From assembly GCA_010093815.1 (NCBI GenBank), contig ML996566.1: a stretch of 64,000 nt of DNA; one strand, 5' to 3'. Positions 25,484 through 29,829 of this stretch are shown piece by piece; within the stretch, counting starts at the first letter, position 1; each line of letters starts with the position of its first letter. The position numbers and the translations under genes are program-made. The notes beneath the pieces are model-generated. The model did not search any database, was not told the DNA's origin, and was given only the letters and a program-made list of their open reading frames with translations. This stretch comes from Pseudovirgaria hyperparasitica (taxonomy: Eukaryota).

Positions 25484-26595
25484 ATGTCGTTTCGCGCATC
25501 ACGCTCAATGGCCTCTGCTACTTCAAGATTATCGTCATTATCGTTCCAACTGACAGCTCAGCCCTCTGCGCGAACTTTCGGTCACCAACAAGTTAGAATG
25601 GCAGGTCAATATACACAGCTCAAGCTCAACACTGGTGCTACAATTCCGGCCGTTGGCTTTGGGACTTGGCAAGATAAGGAAGCCCAGGAACCAGCTGTTA
25701 TCGCTGCCCTCCAAGCAGGATATCGTCACATCGACACCGCCCGCATGTGAGTGTGGCATATCTGTGCTGTCATCGTCGTCACTGATATCACTCAAGCTAC
25801 GGCACGGAAGGAGCCGTTGGCAACGCTATCAAGCACTCTGGTGTTCCTCGCTCGGAGATATTCCTCACCACTAAGTTATGGAACAACAAGCACCACCCGG
25901 ATGATGTGGAAGGAGCTCTTGACGCATCGCTCAAGGACCTCGGCACAGACTACGTGGATCTGTATCTGATGCATTGGCCTAGTGCCTTTGCTCGTAGTGA
26001 GAAATCATTTCCCAAGGAATCAGATGGCAAGACCAACGCGATCGCTGACATTGACTACGTTGATACATACAAGGCCATGGAGAAGCTTCTCCAAACTGGG
26101 AAGACAAAGGCCATTGGAGTTAGCAACTTCTCCCAAGCAGAAATGGAGCGACTGCTCAAGGAGACAAGTGTCGTCCCTGCAGCTCATCAGATGGAGATGC
26201 ATCCATGGTTACAACAAAAGACTTTCGCGGACTGGCACAAATCGAAGGGCATCCACATCACCCACTACAGCCCCTTCGGAAACCAAAACGAAATATATGA
26301 CAGCGGTAAAAACATTAGCAAGCTGATGGATGATCCCGTATTGGTCGAGATTGGAAAGGCACACGGTAAGACTGGCGCACAGGTTGCTCTAGCTTGGGGA
26401 GTCACGAAGGGCCACTCTGTCATACCAAAGAGTAAGACGGAGTCTCGCATCAAATCTAATCTTGAGGGAGATTTCAAGTTGAGTACTGATGATCTAGAAA
26501 AGATCGATGGGATCGACAAGAAATTGAGATTCAACGATGCAAGCTCTGGGTTCCGCTATGAGTTCTTCTCGGATCTTGACGGGAAGAAGCGGTAA
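25484..26595 (+). CDS. Aldo-keto reductase (GCY1/YPR1/GldB-like NADP-dependent)
   Basis: LNTGATIPAVGFGTW, GYRHIDTARIYGTE, IFLTTKLWN, DLYLMHWP, IGVSNF and IPKS. Intron 25747-25796. Confidence 0.92.
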
Positions 26596-26966
26596 CTCGG
26601 ATGCACCGATTTAATGTGTAGGAAATGTGAGAGGAGATGCTAGAATATGTGGGGAGATCGTAAGATTAGAGCTGAAGTGTAGCGGGATGTAAGAATATGT
26701 AGAAATAACGTAGGTGCATGTATGTTGCCATTCTATCATGCACGCAGAGACTTGATGCTGTACTATTTCAGATCTCAAATATTATGTCCGTGCATCGGGC
26801 GCGCATCGGCAAGCCGAAATTTGCGTGTGCTTAAACTTCGATTTTTTCCAGCTCTCACATTCTTTCTTTCCACACGCCAACATCGAGGGACAATTCTTTC
26901 CACCGCACGCACTCCAGTTTCCTTATTTTTTCTTGTAAGTACTCTCACATCTTTTACTTCCCTTAG

Positions 26967-27039
26967 ATGATGACCATTACATGAACAATCCAAAGCCTAC
27001 AGCATCATGAAGGACCTTCTATCTCTAGAATTACCCTGA
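26967..27039 (+). ncRNA. Box C/D snoRNA, U45(SNORD45)-like: guide for 18S A156 (human Am159); second guide to the 25S A-loop region
   Basis: C box ATGATGA 26967-73; D box CTGA 27036-39. Guide CTCTAGAATTACC (27023-35) is the exact complement of 18S GGUAAUUCUAGAG, and D-5 pairs the second A. TGAACAATCCAA (26982-93) complements 25S UUGGAUUGUUCA. Confidence 0.85.
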
Positions 27040-27201
27040 TCGTGGTTACGAGTTGTGCTCAACTTACAAGACAATCTTCAATTATTATAACTGACTAATG
27101 AACAGATAGACATCTCCAAGACATGATATCACTCACTGGCCATGACTCTTCAATTCAATAAAAGGTCAGTCGGAAATAATTCTTTTCTTGCACCCGTTGA
27201 A

Positions 27202-27286
27202 GTGATGACATCGAGACTCGGAAAGGCATTCCTCGACCTGAAGATAATATGTTGATCCAGTCGCAATTAGTTTCAGCCTTGTCTGA
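27202..27286 (+). ncRNA. snR41: Box C/D snoRNA snR41 (18S Gm1126 guide)
   Basis: C GTGATGA 27202-08, D' CTGA 27238-41, C' ATGTTGA 27249-55, D CTGA 27283-86. Guide AGTTTCAGCCTTG (27269-81) complements 18S CAAGGCUGAAACU with D-5 on G1126. Confidence 0.88.
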
Positions 27287-27401
27287 TCTTTTTTTAACCC
27301 ACCCTGCATTGCTGAAGATCACTGCTTGCAAACTTGAATCTGACAGCTCTTCTCTAGGTACACCTCATCTTCACCCCCAACAAATATCGTTACGCATCCA
27401 T

Positions 27402-27526
27402 ATGAGGAATTCTTGACGAACGGGCGGACATATTGTGCATACCTTGATCGGCATCTATCAAAACCAAGGCGTACAAACCTTGCAGCTGTCAGGATGGGAT
27501 ATGCTTGTTGAGAACTCGTCACCTGA
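27402..27526 (+). ncRNA. snR70: Box C/D snoRNA snR70 (18S Cm1639 guide)
   Basis: C ATGAGGA 27402-08. ACGGGCGG (27420-27) complements 18S CCGCCCGU, with a degenerate D' (CATA) placing D'-5 on C1639. D CTGA 27523-26; terminal stem GCATC/GATGC. It lies between snR41 and snR51, as in the yeast cluster. Confidence 0.78.
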
Positions 27527-27644
27527 TTGATGCAATGTGTCGACGACCTGTGTCTTGAGAATACAAGAGCATATCATGCTAATTCAGATTCTCACAGGTA
27601 TAATCTCCCTACTCGTTGCGTGTACCACGTTGGGCGTCACCTTT

Positions 27645-27793
27645 ATGATGATTCTTCTATTCACACTGTTTGATCGAGCAATTCTGTAACGAGAATTTCT
27701 TGAACTGATAGTTAAAACACTGAAAATTCTGATTTAATGAGGTATGTGCGGAATTCGCGGGTGCAATGATACATGCTAATAGTGGCAGCCTGA
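27645..27793 (+). ncRNA. snR51: Box C/D snoRNA snR51 (25S Um2729 and 18S Am100 guides), split by an internal intron 27742-27788
   Basis: C ATGATGA 27645-51. TATTCACACTG + D' TTGA (27670-73) targets 25S CAGUGUGAAUA. CTGATTTAATGAG|C + D CTGA (27790-93) targets 18S GCUCAUUAAAUCAG only after splicing. Confidence 0.88.
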
Positions 27794-27942
27794 TATATCC
27801 TTGACGGTCCCCCGACTGATCTGCTTACGATATTCGTGAAAGACAATGGCTAATATTTTGCATGTTGTCAGGTAACGTCGATCACCAACCATAAATGTGA
27901 TACATCTTCGTAAGTCGCTACCAGAACTCTTTCCTCCGGCAC

Positions 27943-28025
27943 CTGATGAGCAAAATATTCGCTGTGTTCTTTCTGAACAACCTTGAAGAGCAAAATATAC
28001 TTAATAATTCACTTTGGAGAACTGA
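27943..28025 (+). ncRNA. Box C/D snoRNA with guides to 5.8S A43 and to the 25S GGUCUCCAAGGUGAA site (U55/SNORD55-like target)
   Basis: C CTGATGA 27943-49. TTCGCTGTGTTCTTT (27958-72) + D' CTGA complements 5.8S GAAGAACGCAGCGAA (G-U pairs allowed). C' TTGAAGA 27983-89. TTCACTTTGGAGA (28008-20) + D CTGA 28022-25 complements 25S UCUCCAAGGUGAA. Confidence 0.82.
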
Positions 28026-28954
28026 TTGTATATTTTTACTTGTTCCGATTTCAGCAATACGATCTTGTGCATCCTGCTGACTTGAATGTAGAATGCTCCT
28101 TGGAAACCGTTACAAACGAAACTGCTGTAGAACGCCGTATGCACAATTAAACAGCTATGAATAATAATATACATAACTTTACAAGTGTCTTTTATCGAAA
28201 TCATGATATGTTAGTGCAAGAGCCTCATGTGTCCTTGCCTCTGCTGCATTGAGGTAAAGTCTCTCTAGTGACACGCAGAGACGACTTCCAGCCTTTCGAT
28301 ACTGCACGCTGCGATCCCATAGCGGGCCACTACTATAGTCATATGGAGTATAACCCAGGCCTAGACGATGATTATAATGTCAATATACAAGCCGTGCAAG
28401 CGGGTCCGCAATCGTAATTTGCCAGTCAAAGCACCCACAGAAGCACATTCTTCAACTCACTAACTCCTCCACCACCATGATACCCAGAGATGGACTGCCC
28501 TCATACCCCTTGCCCCTTCCACACACCCTTCCCCTCCCTACACACTGCACGCACGCACTCTCAAACAAAACTCCCAGCTCTCTAACTATGGCACAAATAA
28601 CCTGTCCAAAAACCAGCTCTCCAAGACACAGCACCTCGCTCTCTCCTCACCTCACTCCCACCCAAATCATACACCCCGTACACACCTTATACACGCAGCC
28701 TTTGCCCATGTCAGCTTCTTCATCTCGCTCTACGTCTACCCCTTTTTCATTGTTCTGTTTTTCATTCTCCGCGTCTCTTTCGCCTCTCTTCTAGAGCTGT
28801 CTGATCCGGTCTGACCTGATCTGGTTCTACGTTCGAGAAGATGTTTTCCTCAGTCGCGGATCCCCACGTCCAGAAGGGGAGGGAGGAAGGGAGGGAGGAG
28901 CGGGCTAGAGGGCGTGCGGTGTTTGGTGTGGTGTGCAGAACGGAGAAGGAGATG

Positions 28955-29225
28955 GAGAGGGAGAGGGAGAGGGAGAGGGAGAGGGAGAGGGAGAGAGAGA
29001 GGAACATACGCGGGACTGGGAAGCCACTTAGTAGGATGTGTAGTTGGAGATGTAGCTGGAGAAGCTTTGTGTGTATGTGTGTATATGTAGTAGAGCTAGC
29101 TAGCTAGCTAGCTGTCTGTCTGTCTGTGTGGCATTCCATGGGGATGTACTATGTACTATCTGGACAGGTATGTATGTAGATAGATATTCCCATACGCCAT
29201 ACACGCAAACACGCAAACACGCAAA
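28955..29225. repeat. Microsatellite cluster: (GAGAGG)6(GA)n, (TAGC)n, (TGTC)n, (ACACGCAA)3
   Basis: Read directly; lies in a low-complexity intergenic region. Confidence 0.9.
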
Positions 29226-29829
29226 GACTCATACACACATACATGCACGCAGTGTACTCTATCTATCCATAGTACCATGATAGCCCTTCTTGAAACGCCA
29301 ACTCAGCAGTTGCAAAAAGACCCCAAAACGTATCTCAAACATTGTATCATGTTCAATATGCGTTCGGTGCGGGAAATTTCCGACTGTATACCCACCCATG
29401 GTCGTGCTGGAAGGAACGTTGAACAATATGCCTGGGGACATTGGGATGGTGGGTACGTACCGAGAATCGACCACCACGACGAACTGTAACAGTAGTACCT
29501 CGGAGCACGTAATAGGCGGCGCTGTGCAATGCTGTTTATACACTCACGTCAGGCATTCACACGAATTGTACTAACAATGTCTAGACAAATATGAGATTCG
29601 GCAAGGGGGTAAGAAATAGGTTCTTGCGAAATTGAAGACATATTGACACGTTCCCGTTCATCCGTAGATGCTTTTGATTTACATGATTTTCGCAATCCCT
29701 CTAGCATGGGCTTCTCTGATTCTTGTGCTATGCTGCACTCCGAGCTAATACGAATGCTGTTCAGTGTTCGTATGATCATTGCTCGAACTTGGCAAAGCTC
29801 CGCATGTATCCTTCTGCGCCTCTTTACAT

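Follow-up and report, generated by a model that had tools for sequence, protein, structure and literature searches.

The nested intron in an intronic snR51 gene is already known and corresponds to the 'intron B' of Luo et al. 2013 (PLoS One 8:e58547). In the accessible part of that paper (PMC3596301), cluster III of Euascomycetes (snR41-snR70-snR51) lacks the two interior exons, giving an intron-intron-intron arrangement. The same part of the text reports that the cluster gained introns A and C, associated with U45 and U55, respectively, together with intron B, which carries no snoRNA, and dates the intron gain to the Euascomycete ancestor. Among the 42 ESTs described there, 18 had lost intron I only, 14 had lost introns I and II, and 10 had lost all three. 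Those authors themselves noted, in the same portion of the paper, that alternative acceptor choice explains the products equally well. In the literature searched, together with one citing paper, we found no later study of the nested intron of snR51; most subscription journals were outside the scope of the search.

In yeast, snR51 guides 18S-Am100 and 25S-U2729, and Am100 is partial (sub-stoichiometric) and limited by the level of snR51, according to the accessible part of the source (PMC3938493). Liu et al. 2009 described the N. crassa snoRNA CD6 as a 76-nt cDNA, listed only a D' target for it, and called it exon-encoded (PMC2780460). Canzler et al. 2018 predicted that in Onygenales and some Dothideomycetes the snR51 family has the D target of snR67, which is 25S-2724 in yeast (PMC5824354). 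Fungal U3 genes also contain U2-type introns inside a box C/D-class snoRNA gene and need to be spliced; U3 itself acts in processing, is transcribed independently and has its introns in the 5' region (Canzler et al. 2017, PMC5832005). In the stwintrons of filamentous fungi, one U2 intron lies within another and it matters which is removed first, as set out in the accessible text of PMC8469720.

We analyzed an snR51 locus of Pseudovirgaria hyperparasitica in a window, by which we mean the whole 64,000-nt stretch of DNA under study. Set against the accessible description of Luo et al., the locus showed no structural difference. Its inner intron separates the antisense element from box D and is contained in intron III of a host without interior exons, with snoRNA introns flanking on both sides; the intron interior is divergent and its flanks are conserved, and partial products lacking intron I, introns I and II, or all three were present. 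The arrangement having been published in 2013, the value of the window is confirmatory: it adds one species, with direct evidence of the inner junction from RNA contigs in which the outer intron is still present.

Like yeast snR51 (RF01214), the window copy belongs to an snR41-snR70-snR51 cluster and has box C, the U2729 guide and an A100 guide in which the fifth base before box D is unchanged. In yeast, no intron divides the gene, which is part of a polycistronic, non-intronic unit, whereas the window copy is split, intronic and longer, and carries an extra snR67-type guide. Unlike U3, it is an intron-encoded methylation guide in which the intron parts the guide from box D. We rejected the label of stwintron. 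In the accessible description of stwintrons (PMC8469720), the inner intron breaks the donor, branch or acceptor of the outer one, whereas all three are intact here: the inner intron is 139 nt and 61 nt from the outer intron signals (27598-603, 27850-54 and 27869-71) and interrupts the snoRNA cargo instead.

Organization of the host gene

The locus represents snoRNA cluster III in its Pezizomycotina form, in a non-coding host gene at approximately 26900-28150 on the plus strand. The region 26700-28300 was compared with assembled RNA contigs from two runs (X1 and X2) of one sample in one study, for which the library type is unrecorded. The contigs were 100% identical to the window and had GT..AG joints, and therefore derive from RNA. 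The features of the host gene were as follows; for joints marked cut +2, the cut lies 2 nt beyond the aligned position.

26935-27105, plus strand: host intron A (GT..AG); joint from 26934 to 27106 in an X1 contig
About 26963-27043, plus strand: box C/D candidate in intron A, with TGATGA at 26968-73 and CTGA at 27036-39
27165-27357, plus strand: intron I, donor GTCAGT at 27165 and acceptor TAG ending at 27357; joint from 27162 to 27356 (cut +2) in X2
27198-27288, plus strand: snoRNA Afu_455 in intron I; RF01860, 56.3 bits, gathering score 48
27358-27597, plus strand: intron II, acceptor CAG at 27595-97; joint from 27162 to 27596 (cut +2) removes introns I and II
About 27394-27533, plus strand: box C/D candidate of about 140 nt in intron II; stem of GCATC at 27394-98 with GATGC at 27529-33, CTGA at 27523-26
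27598-27871, plus strand: outer intron III, GTATAA at 27598-603, CTAAT at 27850-54, CAG at 27869-71; joint from 27162 to 27870 (cut +2) removes introns I, II and III
27872-27909, plus strand: 38-nt host exon between introns III and C; contig pieces 27870-27909 and 27787-27909
27910-28091, plus strand: intron C (GTAAGT..TAG); joint from 27909 to 28092 in X1 and X2
27939-28028, plus strand: snoRNA Afu_294 in intron C; RF01506, 67.3 bits, gathering score 43

The candidates in introns A and II matched no Rfam family at E<=10. The latter has a box C-like TGAGGA at 27403-08 and occupies what would be the snR70 position, an identity suggested by the cluster order of Luo et al. 2013. Similarly, intron A would be the U45-associated intron, only by analogy with the scheme of the same authors. 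Just upstream of the host gene, an aldo/keto reductase gene (PF00248) has its last exon at 25786-26595. The product of the ORF there (25786-26592) is 100% identical to a protein listed by NCBI for Pseudovirgaria hyperparasitica, a Dothideomycete. Separately, a low-complexity tract of GGGAGA/GAGAGG, CTAG, CTGT and ACGCAA repeats was noted at 28880-29250. A minus-strand match to mir-297 within this tract (25.7 bits, gathering score 90) is weak and looks spurious.

Introns I, II and III are separated by exons of zero length, with TAG followed directly by GTACAC at 27357/27358 and CAG followed directly by GTATAA at 27597/27598. In the RNA contigs, a single donor, 27165, was joined to three acceptors, 27357, 27597 and 27871, and host RNA that is fully spliced lacks the region 27598-27871. 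The first-pass annotation had placed the snoRNA inside a host intron spanning 27598-27871. The acceptor of that intron was borne out by its joint in the contigs, whereas 27598 is for now a presumed donor, since the contigs join all three acceptors to 27165 only. The outer donor, GTATAA, is weak, and alternative acceptor choice from 27165 explains the contigs equally well.

Conservation argues for the use of 27598 as a donor. Among the matches listed in the survey of orthologues described below, an NAG followed directly by GT lies 40-59 nt upstream of box C, with a branch motif before it, in 79/79 intron-bearing regions that extend far enough upstream; shuffled sequences predict 14.7. Conservation of the donor itself extends to GTA only in the intron-bearing orthologous regions among the matches listed. 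The conservation of GT after each acceptor further favors stepwise splicing. The layout of the host fits stepwise 5'-to-3' removal of exon-less introns, and the contigs alone fit the use of alternative acceptors equally.

The split snR51 and its inner intron

The snoRNA and the intron that divides it comprise the following elements.

27635-27639, plus strand: 5' arm of the terminal stem, CGTCA, pairing with TGACG (RNAduplex, -6.6 kcal/mol in the window)
27641-27741, plus strand: 5' piece of snR51, from the Rfam snR51 alignment, coordinates checked
27742-27788, plus strand: inner 47-nt U2-type intron ('intron B' of Luo et al. 2013), with GTATGT at 27742-47, GCTAAT at 27775-80 and CAG at 27786-88
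27789-27797, plus strand: 3' piece of snR51, consisting of C27789 (the last guide base), box D CTGA at 27790-93 and a short tail
27802-27806, plus strand: 3' arm of the terminal stem, TGACG, pairing with CGTCA at 27635-39

When the sequence was re-read, every element coordinate that had been claimed for the split snR51 held on the plus strand, with none off, including the CCTGA claimed directly after the inner intron, which is present at 27789-93. The sequence ATGATGA occupies 27645-51 and contains the snR51 box C, TGATGA, at 27646-51, which was aligned to the RF01214 model. The 25S-U2729 guide, TATTCACACTG, lies at 27658-68 (TATTCACACTGT at 27658-69); this is the first guide of the family, UAUUCACACUG (yeast 25S-U2729), and 27658-68 is identical to the RF01214 consensus. 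The 18S-A100 guide, CTGATTTAATGAG, lies at 27729-41. Copies of CTGA occur in the 5' piece at 27705, 27720 and 27729, and the last of these, the proximal CTGA (27729-32), forms the first four bases of the A100 guide. The rRNA targets were assigned from Rfam consensus guides and from published papers.

Using relaxed Rfam thresholds on the genomic sequence, RF01214 (snR51) aligned to 27641-27744 with 40.2 bits, short of the 44-bit gathering score. The alignment spanned box C, UAUUCACACUGU and CUGAUUUAAUGA, and the terminal box D of the model was unmatched in genomic DNA: the model ends in CUCUGAua, where the genome runs on as GGTA. Without 27742-88, the sequence reads AAUGAGC joined to CUGAUA, which is collinear with the end of the model and places the same U at the fifth position before box D. 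This spacing between the 3' guide, CUGAUUUAAUGA, and box D, which puts the U of AAUGA fifth before the box, arises only after removal of the intron and is not found in the genome.

Family fit was also assessed with a profile HMM built from 17 unique intronless orthologue snoRNAs. The spliced window sequence, joined by script, scored 45.5 bits with an alignment running through box D, and the unspliced sequence scored 36.0 bits with an alignment that stopped at 27741. An HMM built from 9 intronless sequences not of the yeast type gave 48.1 bits for the spliced form versus 37.5 bits for the unspliced form. The spliced window locus belongs to the snR51 family.

The inner intron was classed as U2-type: it has GT..AG ends and a CTRAY branch motif 5-25 nt from the acceptor, the branch GCTAAT being 9 nt from the end of the intron. 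The first-pass annotation had called for reads spanning 27741/27789, and exactly this joint was present in contigs of both runs (aligned from 27739 to 27787, cut +2, GT..AG, skipping 47 nt). X1 contig 4 consists of 27596-27739 and 27787-27899; X2 contig 7 consists of 27138-62, 27356-27739, 27787-27909 and 28092-28145. Both have 0 mismatches and 0 other letters at the joint, with sides of 113 and 123 nt, respectively. In these two contigs, the inner intron is gone and the surrounding sequence of the outer intron is kept. Contig depth over the bin containing the inner intron equals the contribution of 14 flanking exon bases, so the interior of the intron is covered by no contig. These data establish the use of the inner junction in RNA and show that splicing there can precede loss of the outer region.

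Conservation among metagenomic orthologues

A metagenome scan for loci in which both snR51 guides are intact returned at least 117 loci; copies lacking either guide are unsampled by this design, and the counts are not a census. The matches listed contained 99 unique snR51 regions, namely 98 metagenomic regions and the window. Eighteen of these listed regions are uninterrupted, reading AATGA, two bases and CTGA. The other 81 continue as G followed by GT (GC in one case), and 4 of them are cut by contig ends. Strict criteria (a CTRAY branch 5-25 nt from the intron end) were passed by 75 of the listed regions, with introns of 46-68 nt (median 53); two more (L097 and L110) are intron-bearing and differ by an off-consensus branch only. 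All 77 of the complete intron-bearing copies among the matches listed have NAG, one nucleotide and then CTGA (76) or CCGA (1).

Within the 75 strict regions among the matches listed, the base between the acceptor and box D is C in 53, G in 13 and A in 9, and the acceptors are CAG (34), TAG (24) and AAG (17). The share of AAG acceptors (17/75) is unusually high in this listed set, with one base and CTGA following in every case. The interiors of the inner introns vary freely between the loci among the matches listed.

To evaluate the terminal stem, the 14-nt flank preceding box C was paired with the 14-nt flank that follows the post-intron box D. For intron-bearing regions among the matches listed (n = 74), the mean was -6.68 kcal/mol, as compared with -3.61 kcal/mol for mismatched locus pairs. 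None of 5000 permutations reached the observed mean; related loci are non-independent, so this count is not a probability, and the effect is large. In the intronless class among the matches listed (n = 18), the corresponding values were -8.73 and -2.84 kcal/mol.

When the loci given to Rfam were scored, 8 of 9 intronless loci exceeded the snR51 gathering score, with 46.3-93.2 bits (L111 was not listed), and 1 of 5 intron-bearing loci reached it (L004, 44.8 bits). Three regions, L070, L047 and L111, contain Pezizomycotina-type snR51 without the inner intron. L070 reads AATGAGCCTGA, which is the predicted junction of the window, and is flanked by matches to Afu_455 and Afu_294, indicating the same type of cluster as in the window. 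That these three copies read exactly as the spliced junction suggests, at the level of sequence, either precise loss of the intron or a state preceding its gain.

The layout, comprising the splice signals, the single base with box D, and the post-intron terminal stem, is shown by these comparisons to be under purifying selection across many fungi. Together, the RNA junction, the conservation and the gain of approximately 10 bits in the profile scores uphold the earlier proposal that a spliceosomal intron lies between the 18S-A100 guide and box D and that splicing rebuilds the two.

Possible routes of snoRNA release, and the proximal CTGA

We consider it likely that the window contains an snR51 orthologue, located in the third of three back-to-back introns and split one base before box D, that is spliced and then released. 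The inner intron would be spliced first. The outer intron, by then carrying a contiguous unit of approximately 110 nt from box C through the guides to box D, would subsequently be excised, debranched and trimmed to the snoRNP. By analogy with yeast snR51, this snoRNP would methylate 25S-U2729 through the D' guide and 18S-A100 through the D guide, at the fifth base upstream of box D. A forced 5'-to-3' order of removal of the exon-less introns I, II and III might give the inner intron time to go first.

The same split gene could be released in another manner. Splicing of the inner intron might occur in a stable, alternatively spliced host RNA that keeps 27598-27871 as an exon, a reading that we judge unlikely; the snoRNA would then be freed from this retained-intron RNA by endo- or exonucleases, in the manner of an exon-encoded snoRNA, which appears improbable to the same degree. 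Contigs of both runs do keep 27598-27741 and 27789-27871 without the inner intron, Liu et al. 2009 called N. crassa CD6 exon-encoded on the basis of RT-PCR products (PMC2780460), and intron III is still kept in 32 of the 42 ESTs in the accessible data of Luo et al. 2013 (PMC3596301). However, the fully spliced form lacking 27165-27871 was also found in the contigs, and the NAG and GT at the start of the outer intron are kept in 79/79 regions among the matches listed. Moreover, retained-intron RNAs may be mere intermediates in the splicing and excision that we favor.

The proximal CTGA bears on a further alternative. The first-pass annotation overlooked an snR67-type guide, ACACTGAAAATT, at 27717-28, which abuts this CTGA. 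Rfam snR67 matched here with 23.6 bits, the 3' end of its model (CAAACACUGAAAAUUCUGA; CAAACACUGAAAAUU and then CUGA) matching 27714-32. The proximal CTGA would thus have two roles, as the start of the A100 guide and as a potential box D for a 25S-U2724 guide. The window shares with the snR67 guide of Canzler et al. 2018 the sequence ACACUGAAAAUU followed by CUGA, at 27717-32. Their survey used genomic sequence and took that CUGA as box D, whereas in the spliced RNA of the window it is internal. Among the matches listed, 29 of the 75 strict intron-bearing regions carry the U2724 guide, as do 2 of the 18 intronless regions (L047 and L111), which have two CTGA boxes in tandem.

It is accordingly conceivable, but very unlikely in our assessment, that only an unspliced short form is functional, extending from box C at 27646 to the proximal CTGA at 27729-32 and guiding 25S-U2729 and 25S-U2724. 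On this view, the A100 guide, the inner intron and the distal box D would be relics, spliced incidentally within the host RNA. Beyond the match of the snR67 3' end to 27714-32, this reading draws on the conserved 25S-2724 D target predicted for the snR51 family of Onygenales and some Dothideomycetes (PMC5824354), the host fungus being a Dothideomycete. It also draws on the N. crassa CD6 cDNA, which at 76 nt and with no 18S target listed (PMC2780460) is explained by a short RNA with its 3' end at the proximal CUGA no less well than by the spliced form. Nevertheless, the U2724 guide occurs in just the minority of regions given above, while every region among the matches listed preserves the distal box D, its one-base spacing and the post-intron stem. 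The conservation of the distal box D and its stem argues that the short form is not the sole product. A terminal stem for the short form gave a weak signal: among the matches listed, the 5' flank and the sequence past the proximal CTGA had a value of -4.65 kcal/mol, versus -3.89 kcal/mol for shuffled flanks, and regions with and without the U2724 guide did not differ (p = 0.31). Finally, a chance resemblance, with fortuitous splice-like signals in RNA that is never joined, or an artefact of assembly has nothing in its favor except the sub-threshold Rfam score (40.2 vs 44 bits) and is refuted by the exact GT..AG joints in two contigs, the layout in 77/77 copies among the matches listed, and the prior publication of the arrangement, leaving it a negligible probability.

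Release of the spliced snoRNA from the outer intron, the reading that we prefer, leaves room for a second product: the presence of an snR67-type guide before the proximal CTGA makes an unspliced short snoRNA a possible co-product. Where the U2724 guide abuts the proximal CUGA, one gene might yield two snoRNAs with different sets of targets, although we see this as a slim prospect. Removal of the inner intron first would lead to the long spliced form, with box D at 27790-93 and targets at 18S-A100 and 25S-U2729. If the outer intron were instead excised with the inner one in place, 3' trimming would stop at a snoRNP on the proximal CUGA, and the resulting short form would target 25S-U2724 and 25S-U2729. 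The splicing-controlled switch on rRNA methylation suggested in the first-pass annotation is a speculation.

A methylation-guide snoRNA that cannot exist without its own splicing, nested in the splicing that releases it, is rare. The window adds direct evidence of the junction in another fungus, a survey of at least 98 unique metagenomic copies plus the window, and a second, snR67-type guide that would use the proximal CUGA. Because intronless copies read exactly as the spliced junction, the locus provides a clean natural marker for intron gain and precise loss. Since the guide snoRNA needs its own nested splicing, rRNA modification is tied to the order of intron removal. If one gene does give rise to two snoRNAs, the kinetics of splicing would partition methylation between a site in the small subunit and one in the large subunit.
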